A DNA stretch of 64,000 nucleotides, taken from an uncultured Nitrososphaerota archaeon (GTDB lineage Archaea > Thermoproteota > Nitrososphaeria > Nitrososphaerales > Gagatemarchaeaceae). The notes under the pieces were generated by a model. That model was not told where the DNA came from. It saw only the letters and a program-made list of their open reading frames with translations, and did not search any database. A program made the position numbers and the translations under genes. The DNA lies in the NCBI GenBank assembly GCA_963718895.1, contig CAVRAG010000008.1, positions 1,024,001 to 1,088,000 on the forward strand. Direction: 5' to 3'. Shown here one piece after another: positions 15,869 through 25,057 of the stretch (positions are counted from its first letter, which is position 1; the number at the start of each line of letters is the position of its first letter).

Positions 15869-16790
15869 TCAGCGGACGTAGGAGAGCCAGGGCTTGTACT
15901 TCTCGATCCTTCCGTGAATGGCGTCCAGATAGATCTTCTGTATCTTCTTGGTCGTCGGGTACTGGCCGTCACCTATCATCCTCCCGTCGACCTCCCGGAT
16001 CGGGGTGACGTTGGCGGCGGTGCCGCTGAAGAAGAGCTCGTCGGCAGTGTACAGCTCGTCCTTGGTGAAGTCCTCCTCGAGTATCTCCATCCCGCTGTCC
16101 CGGGCGATCTGGATGACCGACGCTCTCGTCACCCCGCCCAGTATCCCCGACTGCATCGTGGGCGTGTACACGACGCCGTCCCTCACCCTGAAGATGTTCT
16201 CACCCGACCCCTCAGCCACGTGGCCGTCCAGGGTCAGGAGAATGGCCTCGTCGTACCCTGCGGCCATGGCGTCGGTCTTCGCGAGTATCGAATTGGCGTA
16301 GTTCGCCGAGCACTTTGCCTGGGGCGGAAGAATCCGCGAGTCTATCCTGGCCCAGCTCGAGACTCCGCACCTTATTCCCTTCTCCATGCCCTCCTCTCCT
16401 AGATAGGCCCCCCACTCCCAGCACCCGATCGCCCCGATGACCTTGTTCTTCAGCGGATTGACGCCCATCTCGCCAAAGGAGCTGAAGACGATGGGGCGGA
16501 CGTAGCAGGCCTGGAGCCTGTTCTCCTTCACGAGGTCGAGGCATGCACCGGTGAGCTGCTCCTTCGTGTATGGCAACTTCATCCTGTAGACCTTGGCGCC
16601 GTCGAAGAGCCTGTCGATGTGCTCCCTCAGCCTGAATATCGCCGGACCGTCGGCGGTGTCGTTGCAACGGATGCCCTCGAAGATAGCGTATCCGTAGTGC
16701 AGCGCATGTGTGAGTACGTGTATCTTGGCATCATCCCACGGGACGAACTTCCCGTCGAACCAGATTGCCTTTGTCGGTTGCAACTTGCTA
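15869..16790 (-). CDS. ilvE: Branched-chain amino acid aminotransferase
   Basis: HALHYGYAIFEGIR, FRLREHIDRL, AKCSANYANS, EGSGENIF, ILGGVTR. Confidence 0.96.
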
Positions 16791-16818
16791 ACACCTGGTT
16801 CTCCCGCCCTGAGGCTAT

Positions 16819-17860
16819 TTACGTATCGCTCAAGCCCGACAGGTGTTTGGCGACGGCGGACTCCGACCTCTGAGGTGGAGCTCGCCCCGCCCAGGTCGCT
16901 GGGTCCTGACGCCCGCCCTCGAGCGTGTGGTTGACAGCCGACCTGATGGCAGACGCCGCTTCGGTGCAGCTCGCGTCGCCGCGGGTCTTCGAGAGCCATT
17001 CCAGCATCATGGCACACGTGAGCAGCATCGCGACGGGGTTGGCGAGCCCCTTGCCCGCTATGTCGGGGGCTGCCCCGTGAACGGGCTCGAATATGGCAGA
17101 GCCTTCGCCGATGTTGGCAGAGGGCGCGACCCCGAGCCCCCCGACGAGCTGGGCCGCCTCGTCAGAGAGTATGTCGCCGTACATGTTCGTGGTAACAATG
17201 ACGTCGAAGGTCTCGGGCATCCTGATCAGGTTCATCGCGGCCGAGTCGACGAGCATCTCGCTGAAGGCGATCGACGGATGGCCTCGGCGAGACCTCTCTG
17301 CAGACCTGCGAGAATAGCCCATCGCTCTTCCTGAGCACGTTTGACTTGTGCACGGCGAGGACCTTCCTCGGGCCGTTCCTCTGCTCGGCCAGCTCGAACG
17401 CGTACTTGGCTATCCTCTCCGAGGCCCTCCGCGTTATCGTGCGGAGTGCGACGACCCCTCCCTCGAACTCGAACTCCATCCCGCGGTAGAGGCACTCTGT
17501 GTTCTCCCTTACGATTACGAAGTCGATGTCGGGCCTCAGCGAAGCGACATGGGGCAGGCTCTTGGACGGTCTGATGTTGGCGTAGAGGTTGAGCACCTGT
17601 CTCAGCTTGACGATCGTCTCCGCAGCGGTGTCGCCGACTGGTGCCTTGAGGCACGCGTCCGAGTCCCTTATCGTCGAGAGCGAGCCCTCGGGGAGCGCCT
17701 CCCCGGTCCTTGACTTGCAGCCGTCTCCCGCCGGGGCGGCCCTGAACTCGAACCTCAGGTCGAAGCGGGCCCGGAGAGCCTCGAGGACTTGGAGCGATAC
17801 CGAGGAGATCTCTGGTCCGATTCCGTCACCCTCGATTGTGGCGATCGTATAGGTCGTCAA
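16819..17860 (-). CDS. leuB: 3-isopropylmalate dehydrogenase (frameshifted)
   Basis: GDGIGPE, LYANIRP, VRENTE, HKSNVL; [31 protein letters not shown] in the next frame. Confidence 0.9.
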
Positions 17861-17876
17861 GCGAGAATCACAGGAG

Positions 17877-18405
17877 CTACTGAGCGGGGGCTTTCAGCTT
17901 TTGCCTCAGCCGCTCTCGGACATATCCGAGGAAGCCGCCCCTCTTCATCTGCTCCACCGCGGCGTCTGTCGCTACTATGACGAACTCCGTCCCCTTCGTC
18001 AGGTCCTTGAGGCTCCGTGCGTCGAGGTCGATAAGGAGCTCGTCCCCCAGCTCGATCCTGCTCGTGTCGCTTATCTGGATGGGCAGCAGCCCGTTGTTGA
18101 GCGCGTTCCTGTAGAAGATGTCAGGGAACGATTGTGCCACGACCGCGATGACGTTGTTGTACTTCACCGCGTAGACGGCCTGCTCCCTCGAGCTCCCGCA
18201 TCCGAAGTTGTTCCCCGCAACGACGATGCTCTCCTTGTTGGCCCGGCAGGCGGACTTGAACGAGGGGTCGTAATACTCGAAGGCGTGGTCTGCGAAGAAC
18301 TGCTTGTCCCAGCTCTCCTGGAGCAGATACGCTGGGATGATGTAGTCGGTGTTGATGTCGTCCGGGTACTTCTTGGCGACCTTCCCTCTGAGTCTGCATG
18401 GTCAA
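17877..18405 (-). CDS. leuD: 3-isopropylmalate dehydratase small subunit (frameshifted)
   Basis: DDINTDYIIP, GNNFGCGSSREQA, SFPDIFYRNALNNGLLP. Confidence 0.9.
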
Positions 18406-19721
18406 TCACCCAGGTACTTCCGCGGGTCGGCGATCCTACCCTCGAGGGCGGTCGCCGCTGCGACCGCAGGCGAAGCCGAGATAGATGAAAGCCTCCGGCG
18501 AGCCCATCCTGCCCCTTGTAGTTCCGGTTGCTCGTGCTGAGGCACCGGTCGCCGGGGGCGAGAATACCCATGTGCTTCCCGAAGCAGGGTCCGCAGTTCG
18601 AGGACTCGATGTTAGCGCCGCTCTGGGCGATGGTATTGAGGATGCCGTTGTCCATGGCCCAGTTGTAGACCTTCCTGCTCGCAGGGATGACTATCAGGTT
18701 CGTGTCGGGGTGCACCTTCCTCCCCTTCAGGATCTTGGCGGCCACAGTCAGGTCGCTCCTCCTGGCGTTCGCGCACGAGCCAAGGAAGACGACGTTGATG
18801 GGATCGCTCACCTCGCTGACGGGCTTCGCGTTTGCTGGTGAATGCGGCAGCGAGACGGTCGGTTCGATTGCCGAGGCGTCGACGTTCACGGTCTGTGAGT
18901 AGGACGCGTCCTCGTCGCTCCGCATGACCATCCCCGTCTGCTCTGCGCTGACCGACTGGCCCTTTCCCGAGAGTGCGTTGTTGACGTAACCCATAGTCGT
19001 CTGGTCCGGATTGACTATTGCAGTCCTGGCGCTCATCTCGACCGAGAGGTTGCAGATCGTGAACCGTCCGTCCATCTCCATCGAGGAGATGGTTGGGCCC
19101 TCGTACTCGGCGACCCTCTTGGAGCATCCTCCCTCGCCCATGAGTCCCAGGACGTGAAGCACGAGGTCCTTGGGATAGACGCCGAGCTGCAGGTTCCCGT
19201 CGACGTGGAACCGGACGGTCTCGGGAACCGTGAAAGAGTAGAGCTCCCCCGTAGCCAGCAGGTTCTCGCCCTCCGTCGTCCCTATCCCGAAGGCGAGCGC
19301 ACCGAGGGCGCCCTGGGTGCAGGTGTGCGAGTCCGTCGCCACCGCTATCTCGCCGGGCAGGACAAACCCCTCCTCCGAGGCTATCGTGTGCTCGATCCCG
19401 TCCCCCTCCTTGTACATCGCTATCTGCTGCTGTTTGGCGAAATCAGCCATCAGCTTGATCCCCGAGCTGACCATGATCGAGCACGATGGGACGGTGTGGT
19501 CGGGCATGAACGCGACTCTCAGAAGGGTCGAAGACCTTCATCCTCCTCCCTGCATCCTGATAGACGTCCCCGAAGTCCTTCTGGAAGTTGAGGATGGCTG
19601 GGGGACCGATGACCTCGTTGAAGTACAGCTTGTCGACAGGAAGGGCCTCGATCAGCTCCCCGGCCTTGACAGTCCTCCCCACGGCGCGCGAGACTATCTT
19701 CTCGGTTATTGTGGAGCCCAT
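18405..19721 (-). CDS. leuC: 3-isopropylmalate dehydratase large subunit (frameshifted)
   Basis: TITEKI, PDHTVP, TDSHTCTQGALG, FLGSCANAR, CGPCFG, STSNRNY. Confidence 0.92.
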
Positions 19722-21286
19722 TCACAAACCCTCTATGGGACCCGTGGGCTTCTCCGGCTCGAGAACCCTGATCCTCTCCGTGTCCTGCTTCTTCGCCAGC
19801 AGGGCGTTGGTACCGGCGACGATGGCTTCCACGCTGGCCACGACGATGTCCCTCTTCATGCCTCTTCCGGAAGCGGTGTGTCCGGCGTCGTCCTCGACCT
19901 CCACCGTCACGTCGGCGACCGCGCCCGAGTCTCCGGTCAGGGCCTCCAGCCTGTAGTTCTTCAGCCGGACCGTCTCGATGTTGCTGAATATCTTCTGGAT
20001 GGCGTTCACCGCTGCGTCGACCGCCCCGGACCCCACCTCTGTGGCCTCGTGGAGATGGCCGCGCACCAGCAGCTTGACGGTCGCGGTCGGGAGCCTCTTG
20101 ATGCCCGTCACGACCTCCAGTCCCTCCAGCTCGACGAGCTCGTTCTTCTCGGCGCTGCCGCCCCCCATGATCTGGACGGCTATCTGATAGAGGTCGGAGT
20201 CGGTCACGCTGGATCCTCCGTCGCCCATCTCCTTGACCCTCCCTACGATGAGCCTCAAGCTCTCCTCCTTGGGCTTGAGCCCCATGCCTCGCAGCTGCGC
20301 CGAGATGCCATGGCGGCCCGCGTGCTTCCCTGCCTGCAGCCACCTCGTCCTTCCGACCATCGACGGATCGAACGGCTCGAAGGTCGAGGGGTTGTTCAGG
20401 ACCCCGTCGGTGTGTATCCCTGACTCATGGCCGAACGCGTTGTCCCCGATTATCGCCTTGTTCGGTTGTATCGGCACGCCGGTGAGCCTGTTGACAAGGC
20501 GTGACGTCTCGTAGAGCAACTGGTAGTTGGTGTTGGTGGGGAGCGCGTAGAGGTTGTTGCAGGCCATCACGAACTCCTCCAGCGAGGTGTTGCCAGACCT
20601 CTCCCCTATTCCGTTGATCGTGACGTGCACCTGGTCTGCGCCCGCGACCACTCCGGCAAGGCTGTTCGCAACTGCCAGTCCGTAGTCGTTGTGGCAGTGC
20701 ATGCTGATCATGATGTCAGAGACCGACCTGGCGGCTCTGACGTAGTCCGCCATCAGCTGCGGTGTCGCTATGCCCACCGTGTCCGGGATGTCGAAGCGGT
20801 CCGCGCCGGCCTCAGAGACGGCCTTCACGACCTGCTTGAAGAACCCGATTTCCGTCCTCGTGGCGTCCATGGCCGAGAACTCGACCTTCACCCCGAAGCT
20901 CTTCGCGTACCTCACGGCCTCGGTGGACTGCTCGATCATCCGATCTCTGGTGATGTTCATCTGGTGCTGGAGGTGGATGTCCGAGGAGGAGAGGAAGACG
21001 TGGATTCCGTTTATCCCACACCCGATGGCGGTGTCGATGTCTGCCTTCTCGGCGCGGGCCAGGCCGCACACCTCCGCCCTGAGACCGGCTCTGCGCGATG
21101 GCGCGGATCGCCTCCTGCTCTCCCTTCGAGGTGATCGGGAAGCCTGCCTCTATCACGTCGACGCCCAGCCGATCGAGGGCCTGAGCTATCTCGAGCTTCT
21201 CCTGCGGCGTGAGCGAGACGCCCGGGGTCTGCTCCCCGTCCCTCAGGGTTGTGTCGAAGATCCTGAATCAGACGGCCGGCGGTCAT
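19722..21286 (-). CDS. leuA: 2-isopropylmalate synthase (frameshifted near 5' end)
   Basis: [49 protein letters not shown]-terminal regulatory domain. Confidence 0.92.
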
Positions 21287-21771
21287 GTCTGGACCTCCTT
21301 TGGGAGGGCCGCGACGCCTGTCCTCGCTATGTCGAGGACGCTGGTGTTGAGCCCGGCGACGAAGTCGTCAATCTGTTTGGCGCTCCCGACTATCTCCACC
21401 ACGGCGGACCGGGTCGACGAGTCCACGATGCGGCAGGATTGCATCTTCTGTATGTCGGCTATGGACATCTTGTCGGTGTTGATCCTCACGAGTGCCAGCT
21501 CTCTGGCCGTCACCTCCTCAGGACTGTAGGTGTGGGCTTCGAGGACGTCTATCACTTTCATCAGCTGCCTGGCCACGTGCTCTACGGCGGCGTCGTCTCC
21601 TTCGAGCGTTATGGTGATCCGGACGTCTTCGCCCCCGTTGGTCGCGCCAGCTGTCATCCCGTCGATGTTCAGGCGCATCAGCCTCACCAGGTGGACCACC
21701 CTGAAGAGGGCGCCGGGCTTGTTCTCGACCAGTGCCGAGAGAACCTTCGAGGCCCTCAGAAGACGGACATC
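21283..21771 (-). CDS. ilvN: Acetolactate synthase small regulatory subunit
   Basis: VLSALVENKPGALFRV ACT domain, QLMKVIDV, RELALVRI, IARTGVAAL. Confidence 0.9.
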   Translation of the reverse strand, partial: DVRLLRASKVLSALVENKPGALFRVVHLVRLMRLNIDGMTAGATNGGEDVRITITLEGDDAAVEHVARQLMKVIDVLEAHTYSPEEVTARELALVRINTDKMSIADIQKMQSCRIVDSSTRSAVVEIVGSAKQIDDFVAGLNTSVLDIARTGVAALPKEVQT

Positions 21772-23474
21772 TCCTTGGATGTGCCGTAGACGGTCTCCTT
21801 GATGCTCTTCCCGGGAGGCATGAACGGGAAGACGTCCTCCTCGTGCGAGACGGGGACCTCTATGAGCGTGGGCGAGTCGCTCCTGACGCCCTCCCTCAGC
21901 GCCTTCCCGAACTCGTCGAGCGAGCCGACGCGCGTGCCCTGCACGCCGTAGGATTCGGCCAGCTTCACGAAATCGGGCAGGTTCTGGAATCTGATGCCGA
22001 TGAAGCGTCGGTTGTACATCAGCCTCTGCCACTGCTCGACCATCCCCAAGCTCCTGTCGTTCATCACTATGGCGACCACGGGGATCTTCTCCTCCACTGC
22101 CGTCGCGAGGGCCTGCTCGGTCATCACGAAGCTTCCGTCGCCATCGAAGTCGACCACCGGAACACCGGGCATTGCGAACTTCGCGCCCACTGCGGCCGGG
22201 AGTCCGAAGCCCATCGTCCCCAGGCCCGTAGAGGTCACCCAGGTCCTCGGCCGCATCACGCGGTAGTGGATTTCGCACCACATCTGGTGTCTGCCGACGC
22301 CGGTCGTGAGAATCGCTTCCGGAGGCAGTATGTCTCTCATCAGCTTGACAATCTTGGGTCCCGACAGTTCCGCGTAGGCGTCCTTGTAGGCGGGGATGCC
22401 CTTCATCTCCTCCCGGACCTGGTTGAGGCGCGCAAGCCACGCGTTGTCGTCGGTCTTCCTGGTGATTCGCCTTACCAGCGCGTCGAAGAGCATGGTGAGA
22501 ACTCGGTTCGCGTCACCGAGTATGCTCAGGGTGACGAGCTTGTTCTTGTTGAACTCGGTCGGGTCCGCGTCTATGTGGATGATCTTGGCGTCGGGCGCGA
22601 ACTCGCTGAAGGTCCCCGTCGAGCGGTCGGAGAACCTAACGCCCACGGCAAGAAGAACGTCACACTCTCCGACGAGCTTGTTGGCCTCGGCCCGTCCGTG
22701 CATCCCTATGGGTCCCACGGAGAGGGGATGGTCCTCTGGGAATGTCCCCTTGCCCTGGAGCGTCGTGATGACGGGGGCCACCAGGAGTTCGGCTATGGCC
22801 TTGAACTGAAGGGAGGCGTCCGCTATCCTGATCCCTCCTCCCCCGAAGAGCAGGGGCCTCTGGGCTTTCACCAGCATGTCGGCCGCCCTCTCGATGTCCT
22901 GCGAGTCGACCGCCGCACTGGGCCTGTATCCTCTAATCTCGATCGAGTCCGGGAAGGTAATTTCGGCCTCCTCCTGCTGCACGTCCTTGGGTATGTCGAG
23001 CAGGACGGGTCCTGGCCTCCCGGTCTGGGCGATGTAGAAACTCTTCTTCACGGCGGAGGGTATCTCGGCCGCGGAGAGGGGCTGAAGAGTGTACTTGGTT
23101 ATCGGGGTGAGCACACCGACCACATCCGTCTCCTGGAAGCCGCTCTTCCCCGTCATGCTCTTCGAGACCTGTCCCGTGATTGCGACCACTGGGGAAGAGT
23201 CGGCAAACGCCGTCGCGATCCCGGTGACGAGGTTTGTCGCTCCGGGACCCGAGGTGGCGGAGCAGACCCCGGCCTTCCTCGAGACCCTGCCGTAGGCGTC
23301 CGCCATGTGGGCGCCGATCTGCTCGTGCCTTACGAGCACGTGCTTGATCTTCGAGTCCCACAGCGCGTCATAGAACGGGAGGTTGGCGCCTCCAGGCATC
23401 CCGAAGATGTACTCTACCTTCTCCTTCTCAAGGGCCTCCACGATGGCCCGTGCCCCGGACATTTTTTCAGGCAT
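21756..23474 (-). CDS. ilvB: Acetolactate synthase large subunit
   Basis: FGMPGGA, RHEQ, TSGPGATN, FQETD, GLGTMGFGLPAA, GDGSF. Confidence 0.97.
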   Translation of the reverse strand: MPEKMSGARAIVEALEKEKVEYIFGMPGGANLPFYDALWDSKIKHVLVRHEQIGAHMADAYGRVSRKAGVCSATSGPGATNLVTGIATAFADSSPVVAITGQVSKSMTGKSGFQETDVVGVLTPITKYTLQPLSAAEIPSAVKKSFYIAQTGRPGPVLLDIPKDVQQEEAEITFPDSIEIRGYRPSAAVDSQDIERAADMLVKAQRPLLFGGGGIRIADASLQFKAIAELLVAPVITTLQGKGTFPEDHPLSVGPIGMHGRAEANKLVGECDVLLAVGVRFSDRSTGTFSEFAPDAKIIHIDADPTEFNKNKLVTLSILGDANRVLTMLFDALVRRITRKTDDNAWLARLNQVREEMKGIPAYKDAYAELSGPKIVKLMRDILPPEAILTTGVGRHQMWCEIHYRVMRPRTWVTSTGLGTMGFGLPAAVGAKFAMPGVPVVDFDGDGSFVMTEQALATAVEEKIPVVAIVMNDRSLGMVEQWQRLMYNRRFIGIRFQNLPDFVKLAESYGVQGTRVGSLDEFGKALREGVRSDSPTLIEVPVSHEEDVFPFMPPGKSIKETVYGTSKEMSVF

Positions 23475-23493
23475 TGTAACTATCACTTGTTTT

Positions 23494-23584
23494 TAGAAAT
23501 CCCTCGCTTGAACCCTAGAGCGAGAGACTCTAGAGTAAGACAATCAACGCTACTTGAGCAAGAACCGACTGTGTCGTAGCGTTG
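23494..23584 (-). promoter_or_regulatory. Attenuator-like alternative RNA hairpins in the ilvB leader
   Basis: CAACGCTAC/GTAGCGTTG (23584-76 / 23553-45); ACTCTAGAG/CTCTAGGGT (23536-28 / 23520-12) is mutually exclusive with CTCTCGCT/AGCGAGGG (23526-19 / 23508-01). Confidence 0.65.
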
Positions 23585-23595
23585 CCGCGTTGCAT
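23530..23595 (-). CDS. Putative ilv-leu operon leader peptide MQRGNATTQSVLAQVALIVLL*
   Basis: 21-codon ORF about 25 nt below a TATA box (CTTAAATA 23626-23619); 8 of the last 11 codons are Val/Leu/Ile; ends 55 nt before ilvB. Confidence 0.8.
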   Translation of the reverse strand: MQRGNATTQSVLAQVALIVLL

Positions 23596-23722
23596 TGCCA
23601 GAAGGTAGGCGGGAGATATATTTAAGAATTAACAGATTCAAATCAAGAACAGCAGCAGAATCAGGTCCGCGATGGGATTCCTTTGCCGCGTAGATTTAAA
23701 TATAACGGCTTTATAGTCTATC

Positions 23723-24154
23723 ATGAAGAAAATGATCAATCCCTACGAGATGATATCCAAGAGCGCCCTGCCTGCCTTCAGGGCCATGATCGCCAAGAGG
23801 CTCACGGAGAACTACGACCTGACACAGCAAGAGGTCGCGACAAGGCTGGGATTGACACAGGCCTCCATAAGCAACTACGCGAGGAAGGCCCGCGGCATGA
23901 TGCTGAACCTTGAGATCGACCCCAACCTGGCGAAGGCCGCCGACCAGGTCGCGGAGGTCCTCTCCTCGGAGACTCCCAACCAGAGGGAGGCGCTCCGCAT
24001 GATGACCGAGGTCTGCGACTACATCAGATTCAACCACGTGATGTGCCGGCTCCATGAAGACCTGGACCCTGCCTTCAGGACGGAGGGGTGCTACGCCTGC
24101 GCGGGAGGTCTCCCGCTCGATAGCAGCCAGATAAAGGGAAAGCTCGTCGCCTAG
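23723..24154 (+). CDS. HTH transcriptional regulator (COG2522-like) with Cys/His C-terminus
   Basis: LPAFRAMIAKRL..LTQQEVATRLGLTQASISNY; C..H..C..C cluster. Confidence 0.8.
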   Translation: MKKMINPYEMISKSALPAFRAMIAKRLTENYDLTQQEVATRLGLTQASISNYARKARGMMLNLEIDPNLAKAADQVAEVLSSETPNQREALRMMTEVCDYIRFNHVMCRLHEDLDPAFRTEGCYACAGGLPLDSSQIKGKLVA

Positions 24155-24166
24155 GGCAAGAACGAT

Positions 24167-25057
24167 TTGGAAAGAAAGCCGGAGTGGCTGACGGTCCTCC
24201 CCTCTGGAGGTGAAAACCACCAGAGGCTGAAGACGCTCTTTGAAAACCTGAATCTTCACACCGTCTGTCAGGAAGCCCACTGCCCGAACGTGGCCGAGTG
24301 CTGGGGAGGCGGCACTGCCACCCTGATGCTCATGGGGGACATGTGCTCCCGGGCGTGCAGGTTCTGCATGGTCACCCCTGGCAGGCCCACGGCTCCGCTG
24401 GACGAGCTCGAACCAGACAACGTGGCCTTCGCCCTCTCCCAGATGGACCTGAACTATGTCGTCCTGACGTCCGTGGACAGAGACGACGTGCCCGACGGGG
24501 GCGCTTCGCACTTCGCAAGAACGATTGAGAAAATCAGGGAGAGCAGCCCCGGGATGATGGTCGAGGTACTCATCCCGGATTTCCAGAACGACGTTGACGC
24601 GATACGGACGGTGGTCGAATCCCGTCCGGACGTGATCGCCCACAACATCGAGACGACCCTCTTCCTGAGCGACCGGGTGAGAGACCCCCGGGCCAACTAC
24701 TGGCAGTCGCTCTCGGTCTTGAGGACCGTGAAGAAGCTGGACCCGAGGATGTTCACGAAGTCTTCGATCATGGTCGGGCTCGGAGAGCAGGAGGAGGAGA
24801 TGAGGCTCGCAATGGCGCACCTGCGCGGAGCGGGAGTAGACTTCCTCACCATCGGGCAGTACCTCAGGCCGTCGAAGAGGCACCTTCCCGTGAGGGAGTA
24901 CGTCAATCCGGAGGCCTTCGAGGCGTACAAAAGGATGGGAGAGGAGATGGGGTTCAGATACGTGGCCTCGGGCCCGCTGGTCAGGACCAGCTACAGGGCC
25001 GGGGAGTTCTTCGTTCGCTCCATAGTGACCAGAGCCAAGGCAATCAACGAAGTCTGA
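24167..25057 (+). CDS. lipA: Lipoyl synthase
   Basis: KPEWL, VCQEAHCPNVAECW, CSRACRFC, IGQYLRPS, SGPLVRTSY. Confidence 0.97.
   Translation: MERKPEWLTVLPSGGENHQRLKTLFENLNLHTVCQEAHCPNVAECWGGGTATLMLMGDMCSRACRFCMVTPGRPTAPLDELEPDNVAFALSQMDLNYVVLTSVDRDDVPDGGASHFARTIEKIRESSPGMMVEVLIPDFQNDVDAIRTVVESRPDVIAHNIETTLFLSDRVRDPRANYWQSLSVLRTVKKLDPRMFTKSSIMVGLGEQEEEMRLAMAHLRGAGVDFLTIGQYLRPSKRHLPVREYVNPEAFEAYKRMGEEMGFRYVASGPLVRTSYRAGEFFVRSIVTRAKAINEV

Follow-up and report, generated by a model that had tools for sequence, protein, structure and literature searches.

A conserved leader reading frame before the archaeal ilv-leu operon: a putative sensor of branched-chain aminoacyl-tRNAs

Introduction

Can an archaeal ribosome report the supply of an amino acid to the operon that makes it? 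The question is raised by a locus in a 64,000-nucleotide (nt) stretch of contig CAVRAG010000008.1, from an uncultured Nitrososphaerota archaeon of the order Nitrososphaerales (the whole stretch is called the window here). In this window a short open reading frame (ORF) that ends in valine, leucine and isoleucine (V/L/I) codons lies directly before ilvB, the first gene of an operon for branched-chain amino acid synthesis. Ribosome-mediated sensing of amino acids through leader peptides is a textbook bacterial mechanism; the ilv and leu operons of bacteria are controlled by leader peptides rich in the cognate amino acid, and Rfam has leader families for Leu, Thr, His and Trp. The polymerase and ribosome of archaea are eukaryote-like, many of their mRNAs are leaderless, and hairpin-dependent terminators are not known from them. 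An archaeal leader-peptide attenuator is not described in the full-text literature searched, subscription-only papers being outside the scope of that search, and the uORF4u paper, in the part of it consulted, treats regulation by upstream ORFs (uORFs) in archaea only in general terms.

Our results suggest, with a probability of about 0.6, that the 5′ end of the ilvB-ilvN-leuA-leuC-leuB-ilvE mRNA carries a cis-acting element that senses charged tRNAs for Ile, Leu and Val. The core idea, that a V/L/I-rich leader peptide senses branched-chain supply, is strongly supported by sequence comparison throughout the order, which includes the archaea that oxidise ammonia and soil relatives that do not. 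A wider proposal, for which the chances appear evenly balanced, is that amino-acid attenuation was invented independently in this archaeal order, and that a pioneer ribosome on a leaderless mini-ORF, stalled at I/L/V codons -3 and -2, would open a stop-codon hairpin which sequesters a strand resembling a Shine-Dalgarno (SD) sequence, and would thereby turn on the ilv-leu operon. If this is true, archaea apply the same amino-acid-sensing logic with parts of their own, and the element is a natural compact reporter for the crosstalk between archaeal ribosome and RNA polymerase and for the regulation of leaderless messages. It could be tested in laboratory-grown strains, because some of the families that have it contain loci titled Nitrosopumilus and Nitrosocosmicus.

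Results

The leader ORF and its promoter

The leader and the operon lie entirely on the minus strand, in the order TATA box, short ORF, inverted repeats and ilvB (table 1), which confirms the arrangement that a first-pass annotation had read from the DNA alone. By reading, eight of the last 11 residues of the leader ORF are V, L or I, and a 55-nt spacer separates the end of the ORF from ilvB. The same annotation was also right that most of these V/L/I codons are uncommon in the genome: according to codon shares derived from 40,919 training codons of the host, six of the eight are rare, accounting for 0.7% (TTA), 6.3% (TTG), 7.7% (GTT), 8.3% (GTA), 10.5% (CTT) and 11.4% (ATT) of the codons for their amino acid.

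When the upstream region was shuffled 500 times with its dinucleotides preserved, the I/L/V tail of the leader ORF obtained p = 0.002. Among the short ATG-initiated ORFs outside gene bodies in this genome, 21 of 12,089 (0.17%) have at least seven I, L or V among their last ten residues, the gene bodies being crude gene calls that make such composition lists noisy, and only the leader ORF sits between a promoter and a branched-chain biosynthetic gene. It is likewise the only one of 166 short ORFs combining a TATA element with an ATG before a gene in which such a tail precedes a biosynthetic gene. DNA contigs of a related strain that extend over the leader differ by three changes, none of which affects the I/L/V tail. 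The leader ORF is an unannotated coding feature that gene callers have overlooked. A second ORF, MIDYKAVIFKSTRQRNPIADLILLLFLI (23638-23724, minus strand), with seven I/L/V among its last ten residues, lies upstream of the TATA element and antisense to the start of the divergent gene; it is probably a chance occurrence, because among the loci compared only this genome has it.

A transcript start downstream of the leader ORF had been named in the first-pass annotation as an observation that would count against its reading. The spacing of the TATA element points to a start at the uORF ATG instead. Of 24 GC-rich related leaders examined, 21 have a TATA octamer of the same class, and in 18 of these it starts 30-32 nt ahead of the uORF ATG; genome-wide the distance between octamer and ATG peaks at 30-33 nt, with 16 of the 45 octamers that precede long ORFs. 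We infer from this spacing that transcription would start no more than one or two nucleotides from the ATG at 23595, and that the mRNA would be leaderless. For ilvB itself, the motif GTGAT matches the GGTGATCC part of the SD sequence implied by the 3′ end of the 16S rRNA of this genome (...GGATCACCTCCT).

Table 1. Positions of the leader elements and operon genes within the window
Feature	Position	Strand	Basis or remark
TATA-like element CTTAAATATAT	23616-23626	-	octamer starts 31 nt before the leader ORF ATG
Leader ORF, 21 codons and TAG, MQRGNATTQSVLAQVALIVLL	23530-23595 (stop 23532-23530)	-	ORF reading
Sensor tract, codons GTT, CTT, GCT, CAA, GTA, GCG, TTG, ATT, GTC, TTA, CTC	23533-23565	-	last 11 codons
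In-ORF stem P1, CAACGCTAC (23584-23576) with GTAGCGTTG (23553-23545)	23545-23584	-	9 nt, 100% complementary
Alternative hairpin, ACTCTAGAG with CTCTAGGGT	23512-23536	-	inverted repeat and folding
Main hairpin P2, 5′ strand TAGAGTCTCTCGCT, 3′ strand AGCGAGGGATTTCTA	23494-23532	-	inverted repeat and folding
Shine-Dalgarno-like GTGAT	23482-23486	-	16S complementarity; 7 nt before the ilvB ATG
ilvB, acetolactate synthase large subunit, first gene of the operon	21756-23474 (ATG 23474)	-	Pfam
Rest of the operon downstream of ilvB	15869-21765	-	NCBIfam matches and reading frames
ilvN	21283-21765	-	NCBIfam
leuA	19722-about 21260	-	NCBIfam; frameshifted
leuC	18164-about 19700	-	NCBIfam; frameshifted
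leuB	16819-17860	-	NCBIfam; frameshifted
ilvE	15869-17017	-	NCBIfam

Conservation of the leader ORF

Orthologues of ilvB were collected from 37 of 41 related genomes and from public contigs. The closest public loci, with 96-92% identity, are titled Candidatus Gagatemarchaeum or Nitrososphaerales/Nitrososphaerota archaeon, and more distant loci of the same order carry the titles Nitrosocosmicus and Nitrosopumilus. Upstream of each gene, ATG-initiated ORFs of 10-60 codons were considered if they ended 20-120 nt before ilvB, and the best of them was scored. Against 500 dinucleotide shuffles of each region, 27 of the 56 distinct upstream regions reached p ≤ 0.01 and 34 reached p ≤ 0.05. Whether related archaea share a V/L/I-rich uORF before ilvB had been fixed beforehand as the test on which the first-pass annotation could fail, and the annotation passed it. 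By a strict requirement, an ATG-initiated ORF that ends 5-120 nt before ilvB and has at least six I, L or V among its last ten residues, the order has such a leader in 12 of its 17 families (f1, f3, f4, f5, f6, f7, f8, f11, f12, f14, f16 and f17). One further family (f13) has, by reading, an I/L/V-tailed ORF only from a TTG start, and the remaining four (f2, f9, f10 and f15) have weaker tails with 4-5 such residues in ten. Among 21 other families of the phylum, two of 39 loci reach six in ten, both of them weakly (L142, p 0.037; L149, p 0.01), and none of five ilvB loci of Methanobacterium, Halobacteria, Methanoliparum and Thermoproteales has an I/L/V-tailed uORF. Such uORFs are also found at loci titled Marsarchaeota (L046) and Bathyarchaeota (L059).

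Between families the peptides cannot be aligned; what persists is the open frame, its location and the I/L/V tail. The conservation is concentrated in two positions. Counted back from the stop codon, I, L or V occupies codon -3 in 32 of 33 lineages (0.97) and codon -2 in 31 of 33 (0.94), and the frequency is 0.61 at -1, 0.73 at -4, 0.79 at -5 and 0.76 at -7, and 0.12-0.17 at -16 and -17.

Hairpins around the stop codon

In the window, the perfect 9-bp hairpin that had been reported inside the ORF is present (P1 in table 1), and its 3′ arm consists of the V-A-L codons that open the sensor tract. The main hairpin, P2, has a core of 9 nt with 89% complementarity in the repeat search (23519-23527/23500-23508); its 5′ strand opens with the stop codon, and its 3′ strand is G-rich and SD-like. 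Extended so that the stop TAG pairs with CTA, P2 has a folding energy (dG) of -16.6 kcal/mol and a z-score of -2.2. An alternative hairpin is formed by the arms 23528-23536/23512-23520 (9 nt, 89%; dG -12.7 kcal/mol, z -4.9), and because its 7-nt loop is the 5′ arm of P2, the two hairpins exclude each other. The fold of the whole leader (-39.2 kcal/mol, z -2.08) was equalled by 8 of 200 shuffles, which is only a modest excess. At this locus the 3′ strand of P2 binds the anti-SD sequence at -8.7 kcal/mol, compared with -5.3 for the real SD window. A scan of 22900-24300 with Rfam at E ≤ 10 found no leader family and gave three chance matches to miRNA or frameshift elements far below gathering thresholds.

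Among the leaders compared, a hairpin was counted as a stop-codon hairpin if its stem started in the interval from 6 nt upstream to 4 nt downstream of the end of the stop codon. In the minimum-energy fold of the stretch following the ORF, such a hairpin with a dG of -8.9 or lower is present in 32 of 42 leaders, with sequences that are unrelated across families and with z ≤ -2 in 14 of the 42. The strands are asymmetric: among 24 lineages the 3′ strand is the G-richer one in 17 and the opposite holds in four, and the mean binding energy of the 3′ strand to the anti-SD is -5.9 kcal/mol, against -2.3 for the background and -1.5 for the 5′ strand. The ilvB SD itself lies in the 3′ strand in four of the 24 (L018, L040, L046 and L050). 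The ten leaders that have no stop-codon hairpin are mostly AT-rich Nitrososphaeraceae or of the Nitrosocosmicus type. In three Nitrosocosmicus-type leaders (L027, L053 and L055) a 25-codon ORF ending in LL or LLL has no local hairpin; here the post-stop TTGAGTTC pairs with the post-ATG GAACTCAA, and the whole ORF is closed in a stem. A stem like P1 is visible in many lineages, with z ≤ -2 only in L025, L028, L029, L046 and L051; as it is rarely significant against shuffles, P1 was rejected as a general feature.

Discussion

Proposed mechanism

We propose that transcription starts at about the ATG 23595 and that the 21-codon ORF is translated as a leaderless message. When charged tRNAs are scarce, the ribosome would stall at the terminal, mostly rare V/L/I codons, above all at -3 and -2. 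A ribosome covers roughly 12-13 nt ahead of its A site, so that with the A site at -3 or -2 it reaches the stop codon and 0-4 bases beyond. The front edge of the stalled ribosome would then lie over the stop codon and the following bases, which constitute the 5′ strand of P2, and from this geometry the hairpin would be unzipped or unable to form. Because I, L or V is nearly invariant at -2 and -3, the intended stall appears to be one that abuts and opens the hairpin and not one far upstream. When Ile, Leu and Val are plentiful, the ribosome would terminate and depart, the hairpin would close and expression of the operon would be kept low. The hairpin would thus serve as a negative element and the long-lived stalled ribosome as an anti-repressor, while a terminating ribosome would open the hairpin only briefly.

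Two outputs of such a switch deserve attention. Our tentative preference is that the closed hairpin blocks translation initiation at ilvB, in that the pyrimidine-rich strand would hold the G-rich, SD-like strand beside the ilvB ribosome-binding site. This was modelled by masking the footprint of a ribosome whose A site is at codon -2 and calculating the unpaired probability of the ilvB SD core. In this window the predicted value rises from 0.38 to 0.62, and over 26 lineages from 0.34 to 0.42, with a rise of more than 0.1 in 11 of them and a fall in two; a control mask at the ORF start leaves SD accessibility unchanged. The translational output is also favoured because, among bacterial systems with leaderless sensory ORFs, the closest analogue likewise acts on translation, as presented in the consulted part of 10.1101/834739. 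Premature termination or cleavage of the transcript ranks second and is somewhat less likely. In bacteria, operons of this kind are usually controlled through termination, and P1, which is able to sequester the 5′ region, would fit a one-shot pioneer ribosome. What weight remains may fall to a two-hairpin switch, perhaps in this lineage only, and to other outputs.

Several observations weigh against the proposed sensor or against one of its outputs. Taken over all lineages, SD accessibility increases only slightly (Wilcoxon p = 0.084), and when an earlier, broader interval (-15 to +3) was used, accessibility did not change consistently; in this lineage P2 ends 19 nt before the ilvB ATG, with the SD outside the hairpin. 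Termination would have to act without a known archaeal signal, because there is no U-tract and gene ends are not hairpin-rich. A run of at least four T after the hairpin occurs in none of 25 lineages, the T fraction there being 0.29-0.33 against 0.28 in the background, and in this genome the 3′ flanks of genes have folding energies of -16.4 kcal/mol against -16.7 in gene interiors. These flanks are weakly enriched in T (at least five T in 8 nt in 18% versus 9%), and aCPSF1/FttA is reported, in the parts of the sources consulted, to act with U-tracts (PMC7515710; eLife 2021 paper cited in PMC13681488). The hairpin is opened as well when a ribosome sits at the stop codon, and the model therefore requires release to be fast. 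In the GC-rich genus the z-scores of the hairpin are modest, only -0.2 to -2.8, and the covarying stems that the first-pass annotation had suggested testing for did not appear within the genus, where 0 of 7 and 1 of 25 predicted pairs covary and the stems are invariant, so that the comparison is uninformative. Kinship between lineages makes the p-values overstate independence, and since a single base change can turn a codon for I, L or V into one for another of the three, a hydrophobic tail is easier to keep than most motifs. The upstream regions of trpE in five genomes had no leader ORF by eye, no count being made, and none of the 166 short ORFs with a TATA element and an ATG has another amino-acid-specific tail before a biosynthetic gene. 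Finally, the sole contig from one RNA sequencing run falls inside ilvB and not in the leader.

Alternative explanations

The first-pass annotation had pointed to two mutually exclusive hairpins, and with these the locus could be read as classical transcription attenuation, in which an early stall lets the alternative hairpin prevent formation of a P2 terminator, whereas a ribosome at the stop codon allows the terminator to form. Both hairpins are real in the window and of similar strength (-12.7 versus -16.6 kcal/mol), and the alternative hairpin recurs with altered sequence in L006, L040 and L044 and, more weakly, in L011-L016. However, the pair occurs in only some members of the genus and in a small number of other lineages, the alternative hairpin being absent in at least 11 of 27 leaders (L007, L008, L009, L019, L024, L025, L028, L029, L046, L051 and L059), and a ribosome stalled at the near-invariant codons -2 and -3 would cover the alternative hairpin's own 5′ arm. 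The caution in the same annotation that the hairpin is no classical terminator was borne out: the sequence after it is ATTTCTAAAAA, which contains no U-tract, a consensus terminator scan finds nothing terminator-like at P2, and the lineages compared have no U-run at this place either. The reading of P2 as an intrinsic terminator was rejected for lack of a U-tract, and classical attenuation as a whole is unlikely. A different view takes the tail as a sign of hydrophobicity and not of sensing, the product being a small peptide with its own role, for example at the membrane or in a complex with the synthase. The tail is hydrophobic indeed, and the N-terminal MQR.N/S is conserved in the genus; yet the hydrophobic stretch has just 8-10 residues, which are almost wholly I, L and V, the conserved N-terminal codons coincide with RNA stems, and between families it is not the peptide sequence that is conserved but the place before ilvB, I/L/V at -2 and -3 and the hairpin that includes the stop codon. 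A functional peptide is consequently the more improbable of these two explanations.

The two remaining explanations are both very improbable, in about equal degree. One supposes that at hungry codons before the hairpin barrier ribosomes shift to the -1 frame, read through, end at the ilvB start and are handed over to ilvB. The -1 frame runs without a stop to a point no more than 12 nt short of the ilvB start, or past it, in 21 of 29 lineages, while shuffled spacers give a mean of 13.7 (standard deviation 2.6) and reach 21 in 0.2% of shuffles. In the window this frame (23483-23595, minus strand) has no stop between the I/L/V tract and a TGA located 8 nt ahead of the ilvB ATG, a stretch that includes the hairpin, and in L010, L011, L013 and L016 its stop overlaps the ilvB ATG as ATGA. 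The excess is nevertheless small, the other two frames being open in 15 and 16 of the 29 lineages, the lineages counted are related, and no slippery sequence is conserved (C TTA here, T TTA in relatives). The other explanation regards the leader as a non-coding structured RNA that binds a protein or a metabolite, with the ORF incidental. Strict conservation of the stems within the genus and the adjacent divergent gene for a helix-turn-helix (HTH) regulator would agree with it; against it stand the missing Rfam match and the fact that sequence and stems differ between families while the frame, the promoter-positioned ATG and the I/L/V tail persist. The sensor of charged tRNAs is retained as the preferred explanation.

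Comparison with known systems

The enterobacterial ilvBN, ilvGMEDA and leu attenuators resemble the archaeal leader in having a short ORF with cognate codons directly before acetolactate synthase or leucine genes, hairpins around the end of that ORF, and a mechanism in which charged tRNA is sensed via ribosome speed. In contrast to them, the archaeal leader is probably leaderless, as the promoter spacing suggests, and has no SD for the leader ORF; its regulatory codons extend to -2 before the stop; it has one conserved stop-containing hairpin and not three or four alternative segments; and the hairpin has neither a U-run nor an Rfam match. Of the features that characterise classical attenuators, a short ORF directly before a biosynthetic operon and enrichment in end-product codons are found, while a terminator hairpin with a U-run is not. 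The feature of leaderless sensory short ORFs, sensed codons at the 3′ end, is found as well.

For the bacterial systems below, the comparison extends to those parts of the cited sources that were consulted. Mycobacterial leaderless polycysteine short ORFs are the leaderless first ORF of an operon mRNA, as the archaeal leader probably is, and have, like it, the sensed codons at the 3′ end; a translational output has been proposed for them in which stalled ribosomes relieve repression (10.1101/834739). There, the codons of the tract themselves base-pair with the SD of the downstream gene, whereas the archaeal leader has a separate hairpin in which the stop codon is embedded. Pairing of the mycobacterial type between the codon tract and the ilvB SD was tried and rejected (mean z +0.12; z below -2 in 1 of 29). 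In ermC and cat, a ribosome arrested in the leader ORF opens a hairpin and frees the ribosome-binding site (10.1101/834739, PMC10219788). It takes a drug and the nascent peptide to cause that arrest, and the hairpin contains the SD; here the arrest would depend on tRNA charging, and only the four lineages named above (of 24) have the ilvB SD inside the 3′ strand. The ilvBNC attenuator of Corynebacterium glutamicum also has a leader peptide and hairpins before ilvB, but it follows a bacterial three-hairpin terminator model, unlike the archaeal leader (PMC11857589).

The operon, its neighbours and other ilvB leaders

The identity of ilvB is supported by the N, M and C domains of TPP_enzyme in Pfam (E 4e-42 to 7e-49), and the gene order ilvB-ilvN-leuA-leuC-leuB-ilvE by NCBIfam. 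The genome has 59.7% GC and an archaeal 16S rRNA, and the assembly is 80.5% complete; a tRNA census of this incomplete genome, with introns allowed, gave 44 tRNAs, one of them tRNA-Leu(taa). In this assembly the frame changes within leuA (21071-21283), leuC (about 19507-19700) and leuB (17162-17322, minus strand), which likely reflects single-base assembly errors or pseudogenes. Because each of these three genes changes frame, single-base errors are possible in the leader too, yet the leader is near-identical among relatives. The RNA run mentioned above, a peat metatranscriptome, contained a 250-nt contig identical to 22449-22698, within ilvB; this is consistent with expression of ilvB in nature, without proving it. 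A second gene resembling acetolactate synthase, with 39% identity to ilvB, is located at G000:C7:69350-71047 (plus strand) and is present in several relatives.

The divergent gene (23723-24154, plus strand) encodes an HTH protein of 143 residues with four C-terminal cysteines, which has only weak Pfam matches to HTH and no NCBIfam match. Its ATG, which adjoins the stretch 23694-23722, lies about 30 nt past a TTTAAATA box. Between this gene and the ilvB leader is the motif GCCGTTATATTTAAG, seen by eye in at least six of 16 loci of the same genus, with near-variants in L006 and L014. The operon could have a second regulator in this HTH protein, one that acts on transcription.

A different conserved mini-ORF precedes ilvB at five loci from the families f42, f49 and f52 (L146, L151, L153, L162 and L163). 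It ends in ...(G)TLQV(H/R)*, and its end overlies the motif GGTACCCTCCAAGT, about 60 nt before ilvB. At these loci ilvB has a strong SD of the GGGAGG type, and the anti-SD-like CCCTCC core is complementary to that SD. Judged by these motifs, the mini-ORF may be a second kind of ilvB leader, which hints that control of ilvB by leader ORFs is widespread in this archaeal phylum.

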